A stretch of 64,000 nucleotides of DNA from an uncultured Candidatus Poseidoniales archaeon (GTDB lineage: Archaea; Thermoplasmatota; Poseidoniia; Poseidoniales; Poseidoniaceae), in the NCBI GenBank assembly GCA_964577145.1, contig CAZNXM010000004.1:1747-65746 (forward strand). The letters are read 5' to 3'. The translations under genes were made by a program, and so were the position numbers. How positions within the stretch are numbered: the stretch's first letter is position 1; every line of letters begins with the position of its first letter. Below, piece by piece: positions 1,719-14,201 of this stretch. Under the pieces are notes generated by a model. It saw only the letters and a program-made list of their open reading frames with translations, made no database searches and was not told the origin of the DNA.

Positions 1719-3040
1719 TTGGTTCGATGCGCACCCTATTGGCAGCCCTGCTCCTTCTGCTTGTGGCTCCATTAGCGTCTGCTCAGAGTTTTAACGAGGC
1801 CCTCACCGAGTGCCCCGCTACCTTGACCGGTAGCAGTCAGCCCGAGCAGATTCACTTGCAACTGGCCGACTCTCACGATGAGATGATGGTGATGTGGGCG
1901 ACCGAAGTCAGAGGGAATGCTGAGGTCGAATGGTCATCCTCTGCTGGAGAGGCTTCAGCCAGCGGAGAATCATACTGCTACAATCACGACAAGGCGTTCC
2001 ATATGGCGCTGATGACAGGTCTTCCTGTAGGAGAGGAAATCACCTATCGAGTAGGTGATGGTAGCACTTGGTCTCCTGAACTTAGTTTCACAACTATCAA
2101 TCCCGATGCCGAGCATTTTGAGTGGATCTCAATCGCTGACCATGGGATTTCTGACGAAGGTCAGCAGGTAAGCGACGGCATCATCTCCGACCAGAATGCA
2201 CAGTTAGTCACCATCTCGGGAGATATCTCCTATGCCGATGGTGACCAGAATGTCTGGGATGACTGGTTCGACATACAACAGGCAAGTACGGTTAGAATTC
2301 CTTGGGTTACATCGGTCGGCAATCATGAGAATGAACCCGGACCCGGATTCACTCCTTACGAGCACAGATTTGACTCGGATGAGGTGAAGGAGAGCGAGGG
2401 ATTCTGGTACGCGAGGGATATGCCCGGTGTCCACATGGTCTTCATCAGCAGCGAGCATCCCTATGATGAGGGCAGCGCCCAGTACAACTGGATTAAGGCT
2501 GATCTTGAGGCTGCAAATAGTGAACAGGCCAGAGAGGAGAGGCCATTCATCATCATCTACGCGCACAAGCCGATGTATTCCTCCAACTCCTATCATGGCT
2601 CGGAGGTCGAACTGAGGGATGCGCTCGAGGCGCTCTATGTCGAGAACGGGGTCGACCTCATCGTAGCAGGACACGACCATTTCTACGAGCGTACCCACCC
2701 AGTAATCGCTGAGCAAGTGGTCGAAAACGGGCCGGTGCATCTTGTAATCGGTATGGGCGGTAGGTCGGCCTATGAGGAACTCGATGAGCCACAGCCGGAT
2801 TGGAGCGCGTTTCGCGAGAATAGTTCCTACGGCTGGACTAGGTTAGTCTATGATGGTGAGAGCAGGACCATCGACTTCACCCATCACAGAATCGATGGAA
2901 CCATCGGTGATAGTTTCACCTTATACGAAGGTGGAGAGATGGTAATGCCAGAGGGCAATGATTCGCTCGGAATAGCAGGGATTAACGCGGTCTTGACACT
3001 CACAGCCCTGCTCGGGGCAGCCCTACTCACTGACCAGTAA
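1715..3040 (+). CDS. Secreted calcineurin-like metallophosphoesterase (purple acid phosphatase-like) with C-terminal membrane anchor
   Basis: N-terminal signal peptide MRTLLAALLLLLVAPLASAQS. Metallophosphoesterase motifs GNHE and GHDH. C-terminal hydrophobic anchor GIAGINAVLTLTALLGAALL. Confidence 0.7.
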   Translation: MIGSMRTLLAALLLLLVAPLASAQSFNEALTECPATLTGSSQPEQIHLQLADSHDEMMVMWATEVRGNAEVEWSSSAGEASASGESYCYNHDKAFHMALMTGLPVGEEITYRVGDGSTWSPELSFTTINPDAEHFEWISIADHGISDEGQQVSDGIISDQNAQLVTISGDISYADGDQNVWDDWFDIQQASTVRIPWVTSVGNHENEPGPGFTPYEHRFDSDEVKESEGFWYARDMPGVHMVFISSEHPYDEGSAQYNWIKADLEAANSEQAREERPFIIIYAHKPMYSSNSYHGSEVELRDALEALYVENGVDLIVAGHDHFYERTHPVIAEQVVENGPVHLVIGMGGRSAYEELDEPQPDWSAFRENSSYGWTRLVYDGESRTIDFTHHRIDGTIGDSFTLYEGGEMVMPEGNDSLGIAGINAVLTLTALLGAALLTDQ

Positions 3041-4514
3041 TCAGATGATGCAAGGTTCTGACGTGAATTCCAGTTGCACCGTGCTTGACCAATTTGTTGG
3101 TCTTTGCACCCCATGCAGTTCCTGCAATATCGAGGTGAGCCCATGGAATCTGCTCTCCATCTCTCTCTGGAACGAATTGTTTGAGGAATGCTGCTGCGGT
3201 ATTTGAGCCGCCCCAACGTCCTGCACCGAGATTGCGAGTATCGGCGATCTTCGAATCGGTAATCTCCTTCTCGAATGCCTTGAACAAAGGCATTGGCCAA
3301 GCGATTTCTCCACAGTGTTCTCCAGCCGCTTTGATGTTGGCAAGGAGTTCATCATCATTCGACCACAGTCCTGTGGCCTCATGTCCAAGAGCGACGACAA
3401 TCGAACCGGTTAGAGTTGCGAGGTCGATGATGTAAGATGGGTTGAGGTGGGTTCCAGCATACCAGAGTCCGTCGGATAGAACCAGTCTTCCTTCAGCATC
3501 GGTGTTGAGAACTTCGACGGTCTTTCCAGAGTAGGTCTTGATGACATCTCCAGGGCGTTGAGCATTAGCAGATGGCATATTCTCAGCCATGCATGTTACC
3601 GCTACAACTCTCTCATCCCAGCCACTTTCTGCAAGGGCTGCAATTACTCCGAATGTTGTTGCAGAGCCATGCATGTCATACTTCATTTCGTCCATCGATG
3701 CTGACGGCTTTATCGAAATTCCACCGGTGTCGAAAGTGATTCCTTTTCCTACAATACACGGGGAAGGCCCGGGCTTGCCGCCATTGAGTTCGAAGATGAC
3801 CATGCAGGGTTTTCGCTCGCTACCCATGCCTACTCCAACCAATCCACCCATGCCCATGTCAATCGCTTGGTCGTATGAAATGACAGTGACTTCCAAGTTG
3901 TCATGCTTGTCAGCAAATTCAACAGCTTGCTTAGCAAATGCTTGAGGGTATAGGTCGTTAGGTGGGGCATTACCGAGGTCTCTTGCGAGGTGTACACCAG
4001 TCGCTACTGCGCTGGATAAACTTGCAGCAGTCTCAAGGTCAGCGACCTTGTCAGATTCACATGTAACATGGATTACTAGTTCACTTTCTTCCTCTTCATC
4101 CTCGTCCTTGGATTTGTAGTGGTCGTAGGAGTAATCACGTAGGCTCATTCCTTCAACGAATGATGCCATGTGAGAGCCTTCAAGACCATGGAATCGAATT
4201 GTGAGAGTTGTTCCGTGGATCTTTCCACGTGCTGCGATAACCTTTGCTCCAGCCTCACGCATCGATTGTTCAGTTGCCTCTTCTGGCTTGCCCAATCCAA
4301 TCAGGAGAGCTTTGCCTTCATCAAGTCCAGCAAGGGTCATAGAAGAGCCAGCCTTAGCCTTGAAATCTCCATTGGATAATACATTGTCAATTTGGTTTTT
4401 CAGATTGCGGTGCACTCCAGCCCCGCTACCTTCTGCCATTGCTTCACATCCTTGCCAAAGTGGAAGGACAAGGGTTCCGTTGATGTTATCGTTGGCGTCT
4501 ACGTTCAACTGCAT
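3027..4514 (-). CDS. pepA: Leucyl aminopeptidase, peptidase M17 family
   Basis: M17 catalytic signature NTDAEGRLVLSD and overall cytosol aminopeptidase layout. Start chosen at the internal Met MQLNV; the ORF extends to 4568. Confidence 0.85.
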   Translation of the reverse strand: MQLNVDANDNINGTLVLPLWQGCEAMAEGSGAGVHRNLKNQIDNVLSNGDFKAKAGSSMTLAGLDEGKALLIGLGKPEEATEQSMREAGAKVIAARGKIHGTTLTIRFHGLEGSHMASFVEGMSLRDYSYDHYKSKDEDEEEESELVIHVTCESDKVADLETAASLSSAVATGVHLARDLGNAPPNDLYPQAFAKQAVEFADKHDNLEVTVISYDQAIDMGMGGLVGVGMGSERKPCMVIFELNGGKPGPSPCIVGKGITFDTGGISIKPSASMDEMKYDMHGSATTFGVIAALAESGWDERVVAVTCMAENMPSANAQRPGDVIKTYSGKTVEVLNTDAEGRLVLSDGLWYAGTHLNPSYIIDLATLTGSIVVALGHEATGLWSNDDELLANIKAAGEHCGEIAWPMPLFKAFEKEITDSKIADTRNLGAGRWGGSNTAAAFLKQFVPERDGEQIPWAHLDIAGTAWGAKTNKLVKHGATGIHVRTLHHLITGQ

Positions 4515-4571
4515 GTGCGCACCTGAAGTCGGGGGAGGTGTCTGCCCTATTGAAGGTGAGGGCGGCAATAA

Positions 4572-5936
4572 TCAACCAATCAATTCTGCCTCAAGTATGG
4601 GTTCATCCATTGAGAATGGTTCTTCTTCTCTAGACCACCACCATGCTGCAAGTACAGCGAGAATGGTAATTCCCGACATTTGTAACACATAGAATGCATC
4701 ACCGAATAATCCCGATTGAGTCACAATAGTCGTATCTTCAGACGGCACGGATTCATTTACCCACATTGCTGCATCGATAATCCTCTTTTGATACGAAAGT
4801 CTCCATTCTCCACCTGAATCACTCCAACCTGATGATGTTACAGAAGTATGATTGGTAGCGTTAACGGTGAAGTTGTCTGATTGCCATAATATCGTCTCAC
4901 CCTTCATGTATTGTAGGGTTGCATTACGTGTTGTTGCCCTACCATGATTTGTAATGTCGAATGACACTTTGTCATCATCGATTCGAATTTCATCTACTAC
5001 CAAGCGTGCCCGCCAAAACCAGACATTGTCGATTAAGTAACGCATTACTTCCAGTTCTTCACCTAAGCGACTCGAGAGTGATTCGATTGAACCAAGAAGG
5101 AATTGTTCATCGTCGGTTTCGAAAGTGAATGTAGGGAATCCCATGACTCCGTATCCATAATCTCGGCTAGTACCACTATTGGGATAGAGGCCTTGATTGG
5201 CATTGCGAACAGGGATGTCCGAAATATTGGCGTGAATATCATCTCGGATTCCATGGAATAATTCCCAATCGATTGGTTGGTCTGGGATGTAACCCCATGG
5301 ATGTAGCATTATCCAGACACCTGTGTGCATGGTGACATAGAGGTCAGCATTAGGTACAACATTGTTCATGTAGGCTGCATTATTTGCAGTTTCAGCTTCA
5401 CTAAACGGACCAGAGCCGGGTTGGGTTTCATCCTGCTCGTTCCAGTGATGGTCGTAGTTTCGATTCAAATCGACTTGATTGATATTCCACCGGGTATCCA
5501 AGTCATTGCCATCTGCATTGAGCATGACCATAATGTGCAATTCAGTATTTTGCAGCACCCTGATTGCTTCTTCGTTTCCAGCAGCCCATCCCTCGATGTA
5601 ATACTGTGCCGTTAGGAAAGCCAATTCGGTTCCTAGGTGTTCATTACCATGATGTCCACCATCGATGTAAACTACATCTTTCTCGCTGCCATCAGCTTTG
5701 GTTTCATTACTCCAATCACTGATTTGTACAATCCATTGGTCCCTTCCCAATTCGGTTTCTCCCGCACTGGTCTTTTTGACGATATCAGGGTGGTCTGCAG
5801 CCCAAGCGTCGAGATCTACAGTGAGAGTAGCCCATGAGTGATACCAGTGTTCTTGGATGATTCCAGGTTGTTGCGCCGAGGTTGTTGGAGCCGATGCCAG
5901 CAGTAGGATACTAAGCATCAGTATTGCCCGGCGCAT
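4572..5936 (-). CDS. Secreted zinc carboxypeptidase (peptidase M14-like) with C-terminal membrane anchor
   Basis: Signal peptide MRRAILMLSILLLASAPTTSAQQ. HGNEHLGTE zinc-binding motif (HxxE) typical of M14 carboxypeptidases. C-terminal TM ITILAVLAAWWW. Confidence 0.65.
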   Translation of the reverse strand: MRRAILMLSILLLASAPTTSAQQPGIIQEHWYHSWATLTVDLDAWAADHPDIVKKTSAGETELGRDQWIVQISDWSNETKADGSEKDVVYIDGGHHGNEHLGTELAFLTAQYYIEGWAAGNEEAIRVLQNTELHIMVMLNADGNDLDTRWNINQVDLNRNYDHHWNEQDETQPGSGPFSEAETANNAAYMNNVVPNADLYVTMHTGVWIMLHPWGYIPDQPIDWELFHGIRDDIHANISDIPVRNANQGLYPNSGTSRDYGYGVMGFPTFTFETDDEQFLLGSIESLSSRLGEELEVMRYLIDNVWFWRARLVVDEIRIDDDKVSFDITNHGRATTRNATLQYMKGETILWQSDNFTVNATNHTSVTSSGWSDSGGEWRLSYQKRIIDAAMWVNESVPSEDTTIVTQSGLFGDAFYVLQMSGITILAVLAAWWWSREEEPFSMDEPILEAELIG

Positions 5937-5980
5937 GTTCTGCCATCCATAGGATGGCAATCAATTTGACTGTTTCAATT

Positions 5981-7297
5981 TCAGTCAAGAATGTATGAAA
6001 ATAAGATTGGAGCGACGATTGTAGCATCGCTTTCGATAATGTGCATTGGAGTATCCGGTGCGAGTTTGCCCCAACTGATTTTTTCGCTTGGAGGTGCACC
6101 AGAATAGCCGCCGTACGAAGTTGTCGATTCACTAATTTGTGCGAACCAACCCCACAGTGGTACATCTTCGCCGAGGTCTTGGCGCAGCATTGGCACTACA
6201 CAGATGGGGAAGTCTCCTGCAATGCCTCCACCGATCTGAAGGAAACCGATTGGGTGTTCTGCATTACGATACCATTCAGCCAAGTGCATCATGTAGTCGA
6301 TGCCGGTTTTGACAGCACTTCTCTCGACATCACCAGCAATGCAGTGTGCGGCAAAAATATTGCCAAGTGTGGAATCTTCCCATCCTGGAACATAAACGGG
6401 GATTGCAGCATCTCTCGCTGCGATAATCCAAGAATCAGCACGCGGTATATCAGCATCGAGATCATCGAGAATAGCCATCAGATGTTCATGTGGAAATGCG
6501 CTTTCATTTTTCCATTGTTCGAGAATTTTCCCTTCGATATGGCGGATGGCTTCATCCTCAGGAATGCAAGTATCAGTCACGCGATTGAAACCACTTTTCA
6601 GCAACTCAGCATCGTCTTCTTGTGATAAATTTCGCCAATCGGGTATTCTGTGAAAAGATGAGTTTGCAACTAGGTTGAAAACTTCCTCTTCGAGGTTTGC
6701 GCCGGTACAAGAGATGGCGTGAACTTTACCCGCCCTTATCATTGGTGCGAGTGATCGTCCAAGTTCGGCAGTACTCATTGCTCCAGATAGAGTAACCATT
6801 AGCCTTCCTCCATCATTGAGGAATGTATCCAAAGAGTGTGCACAATCACGCAGTGCTCCCGCATTGAAATGATTGAAATGACGGTCTACGAATCCACGTA
6901 CACCTCCATTTGTCGGTTGAGTAAGGAATCTTTCGACTCGCTTTCTACGATTGATTCTGATTTCGGGGAATGTTGCGGCCAATACCTTTTCCAATACTTC
7001 GATGATACGTGCAGGGTCGGTATCGCCACAGGTGAATGCATCGATTGCAAGCCAACCACGGTCGGAGTAAGTATGAGCGCTAACATGAGATTCGTCGAGC
7101 AATACAACTGCTGCAAATCCAAGTGGGGAAACACTGCCATCGAAATCTTCGACATGAGAATGTACCCTTCTTGCACCAGATGAATCTACTGCTTTTTCCA
7201 GAAGATTGAGCATCCATTCCCCCTCAATTCCGACCACTCCGGTACAATCGAGCATGATATGTGCGCCATGTGACAAATAATCAACTCCTGTTAGCAA
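5981..7297 (-). CDS. dys: Fusion protein: pyruvoyl-dependent SpeH-type decarboxylase (S-adenosylmethionine or arginine decarboxylase) + deoxyhypusine synthase
   Basis: N-terminal ~125 aa matches archaeal SpeH (VVLLDESHVSAHTYSDRGWLAIDAFTCG, with a conserved E-S self-cleavage site). The remainder matches deoxyhypusine synthase (LSGAMSTAELG...MIRAGKVHAISCTGANLEEEVF; GGGIAGDFPI; EKISWGKL). It is one continuous 438 aa ORF. Confidence 0.8.
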   Translation of the reverse strand: MLTGVDYLSHGAHIMLDCTGVVGIEGEWMLNLLEKAVDSSGARRVHSHVEDFDGSVSPLGFAAVVLLDESHVSAHTYSDRGWLAIDAFTCGDTDPARIIEVLEKVLAATFPEIRINRRKRVERFLTQPTNGGVRGFVDRHFNHFNAGALRDCAHSLDTFLNDGGRLMVTLSGAMSTAELGRSLAPMIRAGKVHAISCTGANLEEEVFNLVANSSFHRIPDWRNLSQEDDAELLKSGFNRVTDTCIPEDEAIRHIEGKILEQWKNESAFPHEHLMAILDDLDADIPRADSWIIAARDAAIPVYVPGWEDSTLGNIFAAHCIAGDVERSAVKTGIDYMMHLAEWYRNAEHPIGFLQIGGGIAGDFPICVVPMLRQDLGEDVPLWGWFAQISESTTSYGGYSGAPPSEKISWGKLAPDTPMHIIESDATIVAPILFSYILD

Positions 7298-8171
7298 TAT
7301 GTGCAGCTATGATTTTCGTGGCAAGCATCGCTGCAGTGAATTCGGTCAGAGGAGTATCCTCTTGTGGCACGATTTCGTTTACGTCGGCGCTGATGACTTC
7401 ACAGTTCTCGAAAACGGTCTCGATTGTTTGTACGGCATGCCAGAATGAGAGCCCTCCGGGAACAGGTGTTCCGGTGGCAGGAACAAGTGAACCATCCAAG
7501 CCATCAATGTCGATTGTGAGGTGGACGGGCCCTTCAATGCCAGATATTGATTCTAACCATTCAGCCCATGCTTTAGCACCGGTACAAGGGCTCATCACAT
7601 CACGTGCGAGAAATGTGTGAATCCTTTCATCAGATTCGAAGAGGTTTGCCTCTTGTCTACAATATGCTCTGATGCCAACCTGATGGACCCCTATTGCTCC
7701 TTCGTCGAGAGAACGGGCTATTGCACAAGCATGTGAATATGGCTCGCCATCGAGTTCGTCTCTTAGGTCAGCGTGAGCATCGATCTGTACTAGTGTGACC
7801 TTCTTATCACACCCTCTTAGGATGCCAGGAAGAATTCCATGTTCACCACCAAGGAATATTGGAAATGCTCCGGAATCATATTGCTCACGAGCGTATAATC
7901 CAATTCCATCGAGTTGTTCTTGGAGAGTGTTTCCCTCTCCATTCCATGGCTCAATAGTCTGAATTGACGCACCTGCTGGTAGTTCTTCATCGAGTAGGTC
8001 ATCAAAGAGTTCTACCTGTCCTGAAGCAATAATGCAGGCCGCAGGTCCGTTTGCAGTTCCTTGGCCAAAAGAAGTGGTTAATTCATATGGGACGGAAGCG
8101 ATGATGACATCAGCCGGTCCTACGGGTTCTGGTAACCCGAGGAAATTACCCTCCACAAAGTCGTCCTCCAC
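7281..8171 (-). CDS. speB: Agmatinase / arginase-family ureohydrolase
   Basis: Ureohydrolase Mn-binding motifs GGEHG, QIDAHADLRDE, SADVNE and DIDGLDGSLVP. It overlaps the downstream SpeH-DHS gene by 17 nt (same strand), which suggests an operon. Confidence 0.8.
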   Translation of the reverse strand: MEDDFVEGNFLGLPEPVGPADVIIASVPYELTTSFGQGTANGPAACIIASGQVELFDDLLDEELPAGASIQTIEPWNGEGNTLQEQLDGIGLYAREQYDSGAFPIFLGGEHGILPGILRGCDKKVTLVQIDAHADLRDELDGEPYSHACAIARSLDEGAIGVHQVGIRAYCRQEANLFESDERIHTFLARDVMSPCTGAKAWAEWLESISGIEGPVHLTIDIDGLDGSLVPATGTPVPGGLSFWHAVQTIETVFENCEVISADVNEIVPQEDTPLTEFTAAMLATKIIAAHIANRS

Positions 8172-8311: not shown

Positions 8312-8740
8312 GTGATAATGATGGGAATGACAATGGCAGAACTAACTCAGGCGATTCAACAACATATCGACATGGAGATGGATTCAGAAGTAGCCTGTGG
8401 AATGGCAGAGCACGCTCTTGGCTTCTTTGGCTTCTACGACCGAATTATCGATAACGCTCTTGAGCCCACTGATAGGAACTTGTTTTACATGTTTCAAGAC
8501 TATGACCTTCTTACTACAGAATCAGAGGAGACCACCCTTTGGGATGGTCGAGAATGGAGGATTCACTATTGGCGCTTCAAGCCAGAACTGCGCGAGCGTG
8601 TAGAAGCATACATGTCTCGCAAGGTAAAGGAAGTCGAAATCGACCCATTTGGCGACATTTACACCGGTGGTGGCACGATTTGGACCCGAGAGGGCGACAA
8701 GCCTGTCAATCCCAATGCTTTCACCTCTGACCACTGGTGA
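8312..8740 (+). CDS. Hypothetical small cytoplasmic protein
   Basis: 142 aa ORF with no recognisable motif. Its stop overlaps the start region of the large surface-protein ORF. Confidence 0.4.
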   Translation: MIMMGMTMAELTQAIQQHIDMEMDSEVACGMAEHALGFFGFYDRIIDNALEPTDRNLFYMFQDYDLLTTESEETTLWDGREWRIHYWRFKPELRERVEAYMSRKVKEVEIDPFGDIYTGGGTIWTREGDKPVNPNAFTSDHW

Positions 8741-8793
8741 AACTGTACTTGGACCCACAAGTATTGAAATGGAGCAGCGCGAGCAATATCCAT

Positions 8794-11745
8794 ATGAAGA
8801 CGAGGAGCCTTATTCTCGCCGCGCTCTTTTTGACCTCGGTGGTTCCACTTTCCACCGCAGATGATCCAGTGGGAATTAGCATTCTCACCGATTGGGGAGA
8901 TGACCATGCTTACATAATCACAGGCGATGTGAATCTCTCTGATGTCAATGTCACACATTCACGTGATGGTTCATCTCTTGATATCGGTTTGATTTACGAT
9001 ACTACAGGAGCTGACCTTCGCCTAGAACTCAACTCCACTTTGGAATATGAGGACGTCATTACAGTCTCAGTAGGAGAATTTTCGCGAACAATAACTGTGG
9101 GATTGTGGAGCCAACCTTTGGCAGACCACGAGGTTACAACCACTACGCAATGGACGATGGACCAGCAATGGACAAATGAGTATGGTCAACAGAAATACAT
9201 CTTGACTTTCGATGGCAATGGTTGGCAAGCAAGAGAGGGGAATATCCTCGAAGCTTGGGAAATGGGTGATGGTGCTTTACAAATTACCAGCAATACTGAC
9301 GATGGTGGTATAATCCTAAATTTAATTCTTGAATCGGTTTGGAAGAACGAGACAATTGTAGATGGAATTCTTACCGGGCAGGTTTTCGATGCACGTGGTG
9401 CTGGTACTATCGGTGTCGAAAACAATGGCACAGATGGAGAGGTAACAATCGAGGGTCTAGTGAGTGATGCGTGGATTAATCGTTCTCTAATCAATGGAAT
9501 TGTCGATGAAAAATTCAGACTTGAGGCCAATGGCTCAATCGAGGTATTGAATAACGAAAGCGAAGAAGGAAATTTTTCTTTGACAGGAGTTCTCGCTGTA
9601 TTATTAGTCGAGACTCACGATATCAATGGCACTAGAGTTCTCGACCATCAAGAATTTGAGGCAACTGCAGATCTAGTAATCGAGGATAACGATACTAGAA
9701 TCGATATTTCGCTTGAAGTATTCCAGCAATTAGAGCGCTGGGAAAATGGAGTGATGGTCAATGCCTATAGTAATCTAGAGGGCCATGGCTCATTTGGATT
9801 AACCAGTTCAGATGAAAATTCAAGTGTAAATATCAATGGCACAATTTATGATTTCCACCAAGCCAGTGAAGATGGTTTGACGACAATCGACGACTTCCAT
9901 CTCGATGGAACGATTAGTGGAGATGCATCGGGAACCTTTGGAGTCGTGAGAAATATCGAAGCCGATGGACAACAAGCAAGTTGGAATGGTACAACATATG
10001 ATGTAATCGTCATTCACCAGGAAGATTGGTTCAATCTAACTGGGATTGCTGGACTACCTAATTCTGAGATTGGAGCAGGAGCGCATCACAACGAATCATG
10101 GGATTACATGGTTCCCCAAGAACACTGGGACAATCGTTCTATTCGCACCGTTTGGCAACAAACCGGCAATGACCCAAGTAGCGGCGATGAGGTTCACAAC
10201 AATTCCCCAATAGAGAAGCCACTAGAGCAACCAGATGTTGAAGAAATGCTTGGCGATGTAAATGTAGGGAGAGAGATGGGCTTTGTCCCTCTTGATGCAA
10301 AAGAAGGTGATGTATTCACTCTTGACCACCAAAACGGAATGGCTCTAACAGTAACATGTGGAATTCCAGAAGTTAAACCGATTGATGGTCACATGGTAGA
10401 TACTCTCGCTTGGACGGGAGTATATTCTTCAGGCGTAGATGGTAATGCAAGTGGTAATATCATCGTAGATGGGCCGTTATCTGGACTCAATGTTGAAATT
10501 GAAAGGATAATCATTGCACCATTTGGTGAAGACAACCAAACAGTAATTGTAACTGAGAATAAACAGATAGATCGTGTACTATCACCATCAATAATTTCAA
10601 TTCACGACAATACTCCACCAACGATAGTTAGCGCTACGCTCAGAGAGGGTGTAGTCACAGGTGAAGGTGGGCCAATAGCTCATCTTGAAGTCGTGGTTTC
10701 AGATCCCGATTTCAATGTTGAGAGCGTAACAGCTAACCTCTCTGGAATAGGCGGAGGAGTTGTGGAACTCTCAGATAAGGGGATGCAAGGAGATACAGAA
10801 ATTGGCGACGATATCTGGACCACTCAAGTTGTTGTAATGGGCTTAGAATTAGGAAATATTTCTATCATCATTTCTGCAGATGATACCTTTGAGTCGGCTG
10901 TAAACCTCAATACTACAATAGAAGTGAGAAATCAACCACCACGTCTTGCAGAAATCACAATAGTTCCTCATAAAATTGCACGCGGTGATATGCTCATTAT
11001 CAATGCAGAGGTAATTGATGGTCATGGAGTTGCAAGTGTGCAAATTGATTTACGCGATAAAGGAGGATCGCTCCAAGACCTTGAACGAATTGGTGAATTT
11101 TGGATTGGTGAAGTGGTAATTCCCGATGGAATGTCACCTGGAGACCATCTTCTAAAGGTCAGGATGGAAGATGACCTTGGTTCTTCAATTATCGTTACTA
11201 GAACTAAGTTTTCAGGCCTCCACCATGTCGAACTTTCCGAGGATGAGGATGTAAAGGTAGAGGTGCTAAACACCCCTCCACAAATCGATGTTGGAGAAAC
11301 AAGAGTGATTACTGTTGGCGATGAAGATAAGGTGTATACATTTACTGTAACCATAACCGATCACGATAATCTTGCATCTGCGAAAATAAAACTTGGAGCA
11401 TTCGCACCACCCGGCGATGAAGGCAAATGGCTCGTGTTAGAACCAAATGGCGATGATACATATTCAATCACGGTTTCAATTCGTTCAACTATCGTAATAG
11501 GAACCCACGAAGTTCTGGTTAGAGCCACTGATATCTATGGTGCCCAATCATCTGATGAATCACTAGCAGTAATTATTCAAGAAGAAGACAATTCTGTAAT
11601 CTCTGGTGATGGACCCGATACCAAATTAATTACCTATGCAGCTGTTGGAGGAATGATAATTCTTGCAATTGCTGGGGCTACGATTTACATCCGCCGCGGT
11701 AGTGATGGTGAAGGTGGCGGATTAGGCGGATTCGGTGAAGTCTGA
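8794..11745 (+). CDS. Very large secreted cell-surface protein (~980 aa) with C-terminal transmembrane anchor
   Basis: Signal peptide MKTRSLILAALFLTSVVPLSTADD (ORF opens at 8737). A long acidic, Thr/Asn/Gly-rich extracellular region. C-terminal TM LITYAAVGGMIILAIAGATIYIRRG followed by a Gly-rich tail. Confidence 0.7.
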   Translation: MKTRSLILAALFLTSVVPLSTADDPVGISILTDWGDDHAYIITGDVNLSDVNVTHSRDGSSLDIGLIYDTTGADLRLELNSTLEYEDVITVSVGEFSRTITVGLWSQPLADHEVTTTTQWTMDQQWTNEYGQQKYILTFDGNGWQAREGNILEAWEMGDGALQITSNTDDGGIILNLILESVWKNETIVDGILTGQVFDARGAGTIGVENNGTDGEVTIEGLVSDAWINRSLINGIVDEKFRLEANGSIEVLNNESEEGNFSLTGVLAVLLVETHDINGTRVLDHQEFEATADLVIEDNDTRIDISLEVFQQLERWENGVMVNAYSNLEGHGSFGLTSSDENSSVNINGTIYDFHQASEDGLTTIDDFHLDGTISGDASGTFGVVRNIEADGQQASWNGTTYDVIVIHQEDWFNLTGIAGLPNSEIGAGAHHNESWDYMVPQEHWDNRSIRTVWQQTGNDPSSGDEVHNNSPIEKPLEQPDVEEMLGDVNVGREMGFVPLDAKEGDVFTLDHQNGMALTVTCGIPEVKPIDGHMVDTLAWTGVYSSGVDGNASGNIIVDGPLSGLNVEIERIIIAPFGEDNQTVIVTENKQIDRVLSPSIISIHDNTPPTIVSATLREGVVTGEGGPIAHLEVVVSDPDFNVESVTANLSGIGGGVVELSDKGMQGDTEIGDDIWTTQVVVMGLELGNISIIISADDTFESAVNLNTTIEVRNQPPRLAEITIVPHKIARGDMLIINAEVIDGHGVASVQIDLRDKGGSLQDLERIGEFWIGEVVIPDGMSPGDHLLKVRMEDDLGSSIIVTRTKFSGLHHVELSEDEDVKVEVLNTPPQIDVGETRVITVGDEDKVYTFTVTITDHDNLASAKIKLGAFAPPGDEGKWLVLEPNGDDTYSITVSIRSTIVIGTHEVLVRATDIYGAQSSDESLAVIIQEEDNSVISGDGPDTKLITYAAVGGMIILAIAGATIYIRRGSDGEGGGLGGFGEV

Positions 11746-13982: not shown

Positions 13983-14048
13983 CCCGTAGGTTGGGATGTG
14001 CGAAGCGAAGGAACCGAGGGTAAGGCTAACGCATTGAGCGAAGGGAGA

Positions 14049-14120
14049 TGCGAGAGCCGGGACTCGAACCCGGGTTCAAGCGTTGGCAACGCTCGGTGAT
14101 AACCACTACACCACTCTCGC
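14049..14120 (-). tRNA. tRNA-Gly (anticodon GCC)
   Basis: The minus-strand sequence GCGAGAGUGGUGUAGUGGUUAUCACCGAGCGUUGCCAACGCUUGAACCCGGGUUCGAGUCCCGGCUCUCGCA folds as a cloverleaf: 7-bp acceptor stem, U8, D-loop with GG, anticodon loop UUGCCAA, T-stem CCGGG/CCCGG with loop UUCGAGU, discriminator A. No encoded CCA. Confidence 0.8.
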
Positions 14121-14201
14121 AAGTGCAACCATCGGATTGGACGGGGGTATAAACCGTTGTCGATGTAGCAGAATAGGTTCAAAGTTGGGAGTCTCAAATG
14201 G

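Follow-up and report, generated by a model that had tools for sequence, protein, structure and literature searches.

Two Adjoining Polyamine Genes, for a Predicted Arginine Decarboxylase and a Deoxyhypusine Synthase Homolog, Merged into One Poseidoniales Protein That Most Likely Helps Make Homospermidine

Introduction

The closest described relatives of the locus reported here are the unfused speDA-speB-speY gene clusters of Marine Group II (Candidatus Poseidoniales) archaea (Li et al., J Biol Chem 2023, PMC10407285). Two stand-alone SpeD homologs from Poseidoniales, AIF02979 and DAC51064, decarboxylate L-arginine only and fail to complement an E. coli speD mutant; S-adenosylmethionine (AdoMet) decarboxylase (AdoMetDC) activity is absent from the assayed stand-alone members of this Poseidoniales family (PMC10407285). 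The SpeDA class, with a Poseidoniales/Gimesia/stramenopile clade, is defined by action on L-arginine and none on AdoMet, ornithine, or lysine. A proline that follows the histidine (HTWPE) is completely conserved in true AdoMetDC and is not conserved in SpeDA (PMC10407285).

Clusters of the speDA-speB-speY type have been characterized as homospermidine clusters (PMC13625781). Agmatine is coupled by every bacterial SpeY tested, the tested clades being non-identical to the one described below. The SpeY-associated SpeB homologs that were assayed kinetically are active on N1,N9-bis(guanidino)homospermidine (diagmatine, G44G) and inactive on agmatine (PMC13625781). Here we describe a Poseidoniales locus in which a SpeD homolog and a homolog of deoxyhypusine synthase (DHS) form a single polypeptide.

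Results

The window analyzed is a 64,000-nucleotide (64 kb) stretch of contig CAZNXM010000004.1 from an uncultured Candidatus Poseidoniales archaeon. The fusion gene (5981..7276, minus strand) encodes 431 aa, with a predicted SpeDA-type arginine decarboxylase followed by a SpeY-like DHS-fold (DS) domain. Its longest open reading frame (5981..7297, minus strand) begins at the first TTG, at 7297, and encodes 438 aa; residues are numbered on this version. Pfam matches within it are PF02675 (AdoMet_dc) at residues 27–117, with 62.6 bits, and PF01916 (DS) at residues 144–435, with 129.5 bits. The start is likely to be the TTG at 7276, judged by an AGGAG sequence 8 nt upstream. Independent gene callers also give 431 aa, and this length matches relatives in which the frame is closed further upstream of the fusion start. 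A start at 7276 leaves a probable 4-nt gap after the TGA of the ureohydrolase gene (7283–7281). The first-pass annotation had an agmatinase homolog overlapping the fusion by 17 nt; an arginase-family gene does lie immediately upstream, but the overlap is an effect of taking the longest reading frame.

The two domains meet at a junction of about seven residues (LTQPTNG; 6905..6925, minus strand), located by alignment of fused with split loci. It coincides with the end of the stand-alone SpeD proteins (after RFL) and precedes the conserved DS N terminus FVDRHFNHFNAG. An AlphaFold2 model of the fusion had a mean pLDDT of 90.1 and a pTM of 0.84. Uninterrupted fusion frames of 431–456 aa, 65–95% identical, were found in 36 species-representative Poseidoniales genomes; these are 36 of the 41 species genomes that have a scorable junction. 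Fused forms group together in one clade, with 92–100% support. Because the frame is unbroken in the 36 genomes, a missed stop, a frameshift, or a sequencing artefact does not account for the fusion. The first two had been named in the first-pass annotation as ways in which the gene might be spurious; whether related lineages share the fusion, a question raised there too, is answered by the same genomes.

The N-terminal domain (6926..7276, minus strand; residues 8–124) belongs to the class 1b pyruvoyl SpeD/SpeH superfamily. Its PF02675 score compares with a cutoff of 25 bits, and the residues for processing and catalysis are present. The self-cleavage site Glu69-Ser70 (LLDE/SHVS; 7088..7093, minus strand) is complete and aligns to the Glu-Ser pair in the AdoMetDC structures from A. 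aeolicus and T. maritima. His75 (7073–7075) and Cys90 (7028–7030) are conserved and match the solved structures as well. Ser70, His75, and Cys90 correspond to Ser63, His68, and Cys83 of T. maritima, and they carry these same numbers when counted from the probable start. The earlier description of a complete SpeH/SpeD-type proenzyme fused to a DHS-fold domain is upheld, and the catalytic Ser and Glu, which it had singled out for careful alignment, are in place. Cleavage would convert Ser70 to the pyruvoyl group, yielding a β chain of ~62 aa (predicted ~7 kDa) and a 369-aa α chain (predicted ~41 kDa) that runs on into the DS domain.

This domain is 53–64% identical to stand-alone Poseidoniales SpeD homologs. 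Its siblings include AIF20807 and DAC45585, whose source datasets also yielded the assayed AIF02979 and DAC51064. Where AdoMetDC has HTWPE, the domain has HTYSD, with Ser78 at the position of the diagnostic proline. The proline is present in both solved AdoMetDCs and missing from all aligned Poseidoniales, bacterial, and eukaryotic family members (23 of 23). On TIGR03330 the domain scored 69 bits, under the cutoff of 75.65. An identity as AdoMetDC was rejected on the missing proline and on the published assays of family members. These comparisons support assignment of the domain as a SpeDA-type L-arginine decarboxylase, for which the tie to AIF02979 and DAC51064 is one of family membership, not of measured identity. 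The first-pass annotation had offered two supplies for the DS domain; agmatine made from arginine is supported, whereas spermidine made from decarboxylated AdoMet is contradicted by the assays (PMC10407285) and by the missing proline.

The C-terminal DS domain (5984..6904, minus strand; residues 132–438) is a putative NAD-dependent, SpeY-like agmatine-coupling enzyme. It belongs to the DHS-fold superfamily (PF01916) by its Pfam match, its fold, the lysine of its SWGK motif, and its GGG loop. The catalytic Lys411 (6065–6067), Trp409, and Glu405 are kept, as is the GGG NAD loop at 356–358. Foldseek comparison with human and archaeal DHS gave target-normalized TM-scores of ~0.66–0.78 at 15–20% identity (E ~1e-15). 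On the NCBIfam equivalogs for DHS and SpeY, the domain scored 59–120 bits against cutoffs of 304–500. The DHS models (NF002294, NF002006, NF002630, NF003052, and TIGR00321) returned 59–100 bits against 304–434, and the SpeY-type models 119.6 against 450 (NF001980) and 75.4 against 500 (NF002699). Bacterial and split relatives of the domain likewise fall below the SpeY-type cutoffs; the genuine NF002699 member of T. variabilis scored 591.8 bits. The DS clade is equidistant from all the curated models. Judged by sequence, the domain is a DHS only as to fold and catalytic lysine. The "full deoxyhypusine synthase" of the first-pass annotation survives in those two features, but not in the equivalog scores or at four positions of the pocket (see below).

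We consider it likely that this gene pair is a compact module of three activities, by which arginine is turned into sym-homospermidine with no use of PLP or AdoMet. In the first step, the N-terminal domain would cleave itself between Glu69 and Ser70 to generate its pyruvoyl cofactor and then convert L-arginine to agmatine (SpeDA activity). The DS domain, still covalently attached to the pyruvoyl α chain, would use bound NAD and Lys411 to oxidize one agmatine, retain the 4-guanidinobutyl unit on the enzyme as an imine, and pass it to a second agmatine by SpeY-type chemistry. The product would be G44G, with release of ammonia. In the third step, the upstream arginase-family enzyme would take off both urea groups to give homospermidine. 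Coupling of agmatine by this DS clade is proposed by analogy with SpeY; we favor agmatine as the substrate because only then does the fusion of decarboxylase and DS domain join consecutive steps. The fusion may also favor the hand-over of agmatine between its two active sites.

The first gene of the module (7281..8171, minus strand) encodes a 296-aa arginase-family ureohydrolase, putatively acting on G44G, and lies beside the fusion in almost every fused Poseidoniales locus. It scored 168 bits on PF00491, and the metal-ligand motifs GGEH, DAHADL, and IDIDGLD are kept in the window protein and its relatives, as expected of the arginase/agmatinase family. On the agmatinase model TIGR01230 it reached 166.5 bits, just under the cutoff of 174.3. 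Its nearest solved structure is 3PZL, an agmatine ureohydrolase (E = 2.8e-25). With a score so close to the equivalog cutoff, the enzyme could be a plain agmatinase; to our knowledge, no sequence diagnostic that distinguishes diagmatine ureohydrolase from agmatinase has been published. By analogy with the assayed enzymes (PMC13625781), we infer that its substrate is G44G rather than agmatine.

Were the enzyme an ordinary agmatinase, agmatine from the N-terminal domain would be converted to putrescine, and the DS domain would condense two putrescines, or putrescine and another donor, into homospermidine. This route would suit the near-cutoff score, the structural match to 3PZL, and a DS pocket unlike that of the validated agmatine-coupling SpeY enzymes, but it would have the fusion link non-consecutive steps and would set a true agmatinase in competition with the DS domain for agmatine. 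It also runs counter to the use of agmatine by all bacterial SpeY tested so far and to the inactivity on agmatine of the SpeY-associated ureohydrolases with kinetic assays (PMC13625781), and we regard it as unlikely. Before 2024, SpeY itself was assumed to work in this manner.

The DS pocket carries the signature DNGDYY...EWK where true DHS has DxKHD(D/L)...EWK, a difference at four pocket positions. DNGDYYSEWK is essentially invariant over 80 archaeal and bacterial loci. Throughout the 80 loci of the clade, Gly-Asp stands in place of Lys287-His288 and Tyr in place of Asp313 (human numbering), two loci showing a minor change at Asp313; human, Sulfolobales, and Haloferax DHS all retain these three residues. 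The pocket also differs from the DFKNDL of the curated T. variabilis SpeY and from that reported for T. thermophilus CdmS. With Lys287-His288 replaced by Gly-Asp, the substrate or product of the DS domain could therefore differ.

In a tree of DS sequences, SpeY was represented by a plasmid-encoded T. variabilis protein, a curated member of NF002699; tree supports were computed as bipartitions over unrooted replicates. The DS domain of the fusion falls in a clade with bacterial proteins (98% bipartition support), apart from canonical DHS and curated SpeY. Its closest non-archaeal relatives, at 50–59% identity, come from Gemmatimonadota, Nitrospira, Verrucomicrobiota, and Planctomycetota and have the same pocket signature. 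On one clearly bacterial contig (L084), an AdoMet_dc-DS fusion (P0308) lies beside an arginase-family gene, and its neighbors include an RND efflux pump, UvrA, and ribosomal protein bL21. Decarboxylase or ureohydrolase clusters, expected around the Gemmatimonadota and Nitrospira homologs, were absent there. The neighbors of these homologs are unrelated genes, and the two groups therefore provide only a taxonomic argument. A split locus (L081) has the order arginase-family gene, SpeD homolog, DS homolog, the latter two genes lying 2 nt apart. In two split Poseidoniales lineages (L037 and L042), the place of the arginase-type gene is taken by a gene of the DDAH/arginine-deiminase superfamily, a guanidino-removing enzyme of another kind. 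A probably eukaryotic protein (P0307) has an amine N-methyltransferase-type domain inserted between the two fusion domains.

The DS domain may represent a third branch of the deoxyhypusine synthase superfamily, present in Poseidoniales and a number of bacterial phyla and probably also in some algae, whose chemistry or acceptor may differ from those of DHS and known SpeY; this is a tentative proposal in which we place little confidence. The Lys-His pair that has become Gly-Asp in this branch is regarded as important to DHS catalysis. If it is true, the fusion to an arginine decarboxylase would be a built-in clue to agmatine as the donor substrate, and the fusion would offer a ready single-protein system for agmatine-dependent DHS-type chemistry in archaea. 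The clade might even pass a 4-guanidinobutyl or aminobutyl unit to another amine, or to a lysine of a protein other than aIF5A, so that the product is neither diagmatine nor homospermidine. The essentially invariant pocket, with Gly-Asp for Lys-His and two Tyr for Asp, is unlike those of DHS and curated SpeY, the clade stands equally far from every curated model, and the insertion in P0307 suggests product tailoring. We nevertheless judge such a product distinctly unlikely: validated homospermidine clusters follow exactly this logic of arginine decarboxylase, DS domain, and ureohydrolase, the domain keeps its NAD loop as well as the catalytic Lys, Trp, and Glu, and the Poseidoniales gene has already been classed as speY (PMC10407285).

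The DS gene of the fusion is not the sole DHS-family gene of the lineage. In two genomes (L023 and L024), the contig that carries the fusion also encodes a canonical DHS, 6–7 kb from the fusion gene; in L023 it occupies 3954–4955. These proteins score 376 and 366 bits on NF002294 (cutoff 350) and are 46–47% identical to the archaeal DHS 8PUT. Canonical DHS is widespread in Poseidoniaceae, at 82–96% identity. The gene adjoins uvrB in this lineage. Within the 64 kb window, motif scanning and tblastn detected no aIF5A, no spermidine synthase, and no second (canonical) DS gene, and Pfam searches of ten mid-sized open reading frames returned nothing polyamine-related; an aIF5A gene was likewise absent from the neighborhood of the locus. 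The real DHS for aIF5A is a separate gene elsewhere in Poseidoniales genomes, and the fusion was rejected as the DHS of the organism on the presence of the canonical gene on fusion-bearing contigs. Bacteria have no aIF5A. The first-pass annotation suggested that the fusion could feed aIF5A modification, as the organism's DHS working with an agmatinase-like enzyme through agmatine, as proposed for Haloferax (PMC5178350), or through spermidine derived from decarboxylated AdoMet; the DHS fold, the catalytic lysine, and the open question of agmatine-dependent DHS proteins in archaea (PMC13625781) speak for this, but it is very improbable and already largely refuted by the separate canonical DHS, by a DS clade held in common with bacteria (one of which has the same fusion), by the lack of an aIF5A gene in the window and near the locus, and by stand-alone family members that have no AdoMetDC activity (PMC10407285).

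Discussion

If the route from arginine through agmatine and G44G is correct, most Poseidoniales make homospermidine with two genes and without PLP or AdoMet. The Poseidoniales (Marine Group II) are among the most abundant archaea of the surface ocean, and the module would bear on marine nitrogen and polyamine cycling, including the release of urea. That decarboxylase and DS domain are joined is an independent genetic argument for agmatine rather than putrescine as the substrate of the DHS-like clade. In databases, the fused proteins carry the name "deoxyhypusine synthase" and the decarboxylases that stand alone the name "adenosylmethionine decarboxylase"; either label would lead metabolic reconstructions of Poseidoniales astray, and the present reading would correct them. 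A SpeY-like paralog occurs alongside a canonical DHS in at least one archaeal lineage, a point of relevance to the question posed in the 2026 paper (PMC13625781).

Comparison with Known Systems

The published unfused cluster comes from the same lineage and has the same three families and gene order (compare L081). Its SpeD homologs have been assayed as L-arginine decarboxylases, and they share the motif DESHxxAH(C/T)YS with the N-terminal domain (PMC10407285). The difference is that the SpeD and DS homologs are here one polypeptide with a ~7-residue junction. No mention of a fusion between a SpeD homolog and a DS domain was found in a limited literature search. The unfused cluster of the lineage is already published; the novelty lies in the fusion and in the unusual DS pocket, both of them variations on a known type.

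SpeY has the same DHS fold, catalytic Lys, Trp, and Glu, and NAD loop, and it is likewise linked to arginine decarboxylase and ureohydrolase genes. As in SpeY, the DS domain lacks both Asp (positions 243 and 316) that bind spermidine in eukaryotic DHS. It differs in being only ~25% identical to the T. variabilis member, in its score on NF002699 (75 bits against 500), in having DNGDYY for DFKNDL, and in falling in a separate clade. Canonical archaeal DHS (PDB 8PUT and 7CMC; NF002294) also has the same fold (Foldseek TM-score ~0.74–0.76, target-normalized) and the SWGK motif, and NAD dependence is presumed to be shared. Identity is again ~25%, and the DS domain has Gly-Asp for Lys287-His288 and Tyr for Asp313.

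Self-cleaving SpeD-type domains are joined to other polyamine enzymes in the SpeD-SpeDC fusions of AdoMetDC with a pyruvoyl ornithine decarboxylase (PMC10407285) and in AdoMetDC-aminopropyltransferase fusions. In both, as predicted here, processing leaves one chain with two activities. A 2011 paper on polyamine gene fusions in diatoms reportedly dealt with aminopropyltransferases, not with DHS-like domains. The Poseidoniales protein differs from those fusions in that its partner has the DHS fold and its decarboxylase is predicted to act on arginine, not on AdoMet or ornithine.

The Two Domains Share One Uninterrupted Frame

The fusion ORF (5981..7297, minus strand; 438 aa counted from the first TTG) matches Pfam AdoMet_dc at aa 27-117 (62.6 bits) and Pfam DS at aa 144-435 (129.5 bits). 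A missed stop or frameshift between the domains was looked for and none was found. Among species-representative genomes, one scan yielded 40 loci from Poseidoniales, and in 36 of them both domains lie in a single uninterrupted frame of 431-456 aa, with 65-95% protein identity to the window. The same Pfam pair is present in more than 90 marine-metagenome protein clusters. This recurrence excludes an assembly or frameshift artefact, so the fused gene described in the first-pass annotation is real, and the fused form is the dominant one in Poseidoniales. The top genomic match to the window locus is a Candidatus Poseidoniaceae MAG (95% identity), and the close matches are all Poseidoniales, that is, Marine Group II.

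The arginase-family ORF (7281..8171, minus strand; 296 aa; Pfam Arginase family, 168 bits) had been described as overlapping the fusion by 17 nt. The likely start of the fusion is the TTG at 7276, which has AGGAG 8 nt 5' of it and would give a 431-aa product, the length of most database relatives. In several relatives a stop codon closes the frame just upstream of the equivalent TTG, and in an 83%-identical relative independent gene calls put the fusion start 4 nt past the stop of the upstream gene. With this start, the overlap gives way to a 4-nt gap. Whichever start applies, the two genes form a tight operon.

Downstream of the fusion, after gaps of 20 nt and then 3 nt, are an M14 carboxypeptidase and an M17 leucyl aminopeptidase (3027-5960, minus strand); the carboxypeptidase has a signal peptide and is anchored to the membrane at its C-terminus. 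A DUF6015 gene diverges upstream of the polyamine genes. Linkage of the peptidase pair and DUF6015 to the polyamine genes recurs in relatives (loci L081 and L085 among them), in varying orientation. If co-transcribed with the polyamine genes, the peptidases might supply arginine from peptides. In the 64 kb window neither an aIF5A or spermidine synthase motif nor a further DS gene was found, and ten mid-sized ORFs compared with Pfam are β-oxidation or housekeeping genes. A probable surface protein, acidic and 1002 aa long (8737-11745, plus strand), carries a signal-like segment at its N-terminus and a membrane anchor at its C-terminus; for its counterparts in L081 (1030 aa) and L085 (981 aa) no Pfam hit is recorded. 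The sole tRNA of the window is a tRNA-Gly (GCC; 14047-14121, minus strand).

The N-Terminal Domain Resembles Arginine Decarboxylases

When aligned with the solved A. aeolicus and T. maritima AdoMetDCs, the N-terminal domain has its Glu-Ser processing site, His and Cys in register; the Glu-Ser site is the one named in the first reading. Two stand-alone Poseidoniales SpeD homologs, AIF02979 and DAC51064 (the latter from a Poseidoniales MAG), have genes clustered with speB and speY (Li et al., PMC10407285). L-arginine was the sole substrate that they decarboxylated, and with neither of them did a speD mutant of E. coli regain the ability to make spermidine (PMC10407285). A diagnostic proline is completely conserved in true AdoMetDCs and not in these arginine decarboxylases (PMC10407285). 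The window has HTYSD at the position of HTWPE in the two solved AdoMetDCs, and the proline is absent from all 23 aligned Poseidoniales-family members, fused and stand-alone. The window domain shares 53-64% identity with stand-alone SpeD members from Poseidoniales, among them the siblings AIF20807 and DAC45585, which come from the datasets that also contain the assayed proteins. The missing proline and the published assays on family members both argue against an AdoMetDC. Judged from its sequence, the domain is instead most likely an arginine decarboxylase (SpeDA), tied to AIF02979 and DAC51064 by family membership rather than by measured identity.

A DHS-Fold C-Terminal Domain That Is Probably Not the Deoxyhypusine Synthase of the Organism

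A confident AlphaFold2 model of the fusion (pLDDT 90.1, pTM 0.84) gave target-normalised TM-scores of about 0.66-0.78 between the C-terminal domain and DHS structures, at only 15-20% identity. Of the full deoxyhypusine synthase in the first-pass annotation, the fold and the catalytic Lys stand; the assigned function is not supported, and four independent lines (models, pocket, relatives and a separate DHS) agree on this.

The DS domain scored 59-100 bits on DHS equivalogs (cutoffs 304-434) and 75-120 bits on two SpeY-type equivalogs (cutoffs 450-500); its bacterial and split relatives likewise fell under both sets of cutoffs. Ten active-site positions were mapped via alignment to human DHS (238, 243, 287, 288, 313, 316, 317, 323, 327 and 329, human numbering). 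They read DDKHDDSEWK in human DHS, D(T/N)KHDLSEWK in archaeal DHS (8PUT; position 243 varies with the alignment), DNKHDLSEWK in H. volcanii pHV3 DHS, which passes NF003052, and DFKNDLSEWK in T. variabilis SpeY, which passes NF002699 with 592 bits. The window and 80 related archaeal and bacterial loci have DNGDYYSEWK, with single-position exceptions in three bacterial loci. Here the catalytic Lys is retained, along with the Trp, Glu and NAD loop, but substitutions affect the Lys-His pair and two Asp. In a neighbour-joining tree the whole DNGDYY clade stands apart from canonical DHS and curated SpeY (98% bipartition support). The closest sequences outside Poseidoniales (50-59% identity) come from Gemmatimonadota, Nitrospira, Verrucomicrobiota and Planctomycetota, which have EF-P and are not known to have aIF5A.

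Two fusion-bearing Poseidoniales contigs, L023 and L024, carry a second DS-family gene 6-7 kb upstream of the fusion (3954-4955 and 3033-3953, plus strand). Its product shares 46-47% identity with 8PUT, scores above the cutoff of the NF002294 DHS equivalog (376 and 366 bits; cutoff 350) and has the canonical KH...D...L...E.W.K pocket. This makes the fusion very unlikely to be the deoxyhypusine synthase of the organism. The canonical gene, also found at 4001-5005 (plus strand) in L087-L089, is widespread: it is represented by at least 120 clusters among the matches listed, several named Ca. Poseidoniaceae, and at 82-96% identity is better conserved than the fusion. It usually adjoins uvrB, lying directly downstream of it in the loci seen. 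Human position 316 is Leu rather than Asp, as in other archaeal DHS.

In public records stand-alone SpeDA proteins are named AdoMetDC and fused proteins 'deoxyhypusine synthase'; both names are probably wrong. The stand-alone Poseidoniales SpeDA of L081 (4375-4758, plus strand) passes the TIGR03330 'adenosylmethionine decarboxylase' equivalog (78.8; cutoff 75.65).

Origin and Relatives of the Fusion

In L081, a split Poseidoniales locus, separate arginase-family, SpeD (127 aa) and DS (318 aa) genes follow one another in this order, with 2 nt between the last two. Stand-alone SpeDs terminate a few residues past a conserved RF(L/V); in alignment, the fused proteins continue past this RFL and reach the conserved DS N-terminus after about 7 residues. 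The fused DS domains of Poseidoniales all fall in one clade (support 92-100%; 92% by bipartition count), which points to one stop-codon loss, inherited by most of the order. There is no conserved internal Met at the junction, so a separate DS product is not expected.

A representative-level search returned P0308, an AdoMet_dc-DS fusion of 453 aa (46% identity) from a MAG labelled Pseudomonadota, on a 78 kb contig with an RND efflux system, UvrA and ribosomal protein bL21. The P0308 gene is directly adjoined by an arginase-family gene of 296 aa. Grouping of P0308 with the Poseidoniales fusions received 1% support in the DS tree, and its linked ureohydrolase is only 28% identical to that of the window; the fusion thus probably arose twice. 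A module that functions in a bacterium cannot have aIF5A as its target. Together with the separate canonical DHS and a DS clade common to bacteria, this argues against the proposal that the fusion serves aIF5A hypusination.

P0307 (756 aa; a 2.5 kb JGI metagenome contig) joins a SpeDA-type AdoMet_dc domain, an NNMT/PNMT/TEMT-type N-methyltransferase and a DS domain of the DNGDYY-type clade (51% identity), in that order. Its N-terminal extension resembles an organelle-targeting peptide, so it probably comes from a eukaryotic alga, and it may make N-methylated polyamines. In L049 (Gemmatimonadaceae) and L061 (Nitrospira), around 9950-11000, the DS gene, a member of the same clade, stands alone: neither a decarboxylase nor a ureohydrolase lies within 10 kb of it, and the genes around it encode a TPR protein, a TonB-dependent receptor and a DNA glycosylase.

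A Likely Route to Homospermidine

SpeY joins two agmatines to form N1,N9-bis(guanidino)homospermidine (G44G), a reaction demonstrated initially in T. thermophilus (PMC10981699) and later in six more bacterial species, drawn from five phyla (PMC13625781). Both purified SpeY-associated SpeB homologs hydrolysed G44G and not agmatine (PMC13625781). Homospermidine is the product of characterised clusters of this composition (PMC13625781). By analogy, the most likely order for the window module is arginine decarboxylase, DS, ureohydrolase. The N-terminal domain would self-process and then produce agmatine, the attached DS domain would link two agmatines by way of an NAD-dependent Lys411 imine, and the upstream ureohydrolase would free two urea and homospermidine. 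The fusion supports this order, since consecutive enzymes are joined only if the DS substrate is agmatine, not putrescine. We infer this chemistry for the DNGDYY clade, whose pocket is unlike those of validated SpeYs. Of the two substrate options raised earlier, arginine to agmatine is the one supported; the agmatine is likely destined for a free polyamine rather than for aIF5A.

SpeD and DS are separate genes in the split lineages L037 and L042, and no arginase-family gene was found nearby. Directly after DS is a 274 aa gene of the DDAH/arginine-deiminase (guanidino-modifying) superfamily (L037, 11390-12214; L042, 11432-12256; both plus strand), followed by an M28/M20-type peptidase-family gene. 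The DDAH-type gene may provide an alternative, deiminase-type removal of guanidino groups, and its replacement of the arginase type is consistent with a guanidino intermediate.

Comparison with Known Systems

The question has been raised whether agmatine-dependent and spermidine-dependent DHS proteins both occur in archaea (PMC13625781); the coexistence of canonical DHS and a SpeY-like paralog within one archaeal order bears on it. The result is also useful for gene annotation in this very abundant marine group, and the module offers a natural experiment on the order of substrates. The system is not new in kind: an unfused speDA-speB-speY cluster of Marine Group II has been published and its decarboxylase characterised (PMC10407285). 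That cluster consists of separate genes, whereas the window encodes a single SpeDA-SpeY-like polypeptide. A SpeDA-SpeY fusion is not mentioned in PMC10407285 or PMC13625781, though it may be elsewhere; the fusions named there are SpeD-SpeDC, a fused aguA-aguB gene and an artificial SpeY-ODC query. What appears to be new, as predicted from sequence, is a natural bifunctional arginine decarboxylase/SpeY-like protein built on a branch of the DHS superfamily with an unusual, essentially invariant pocket.
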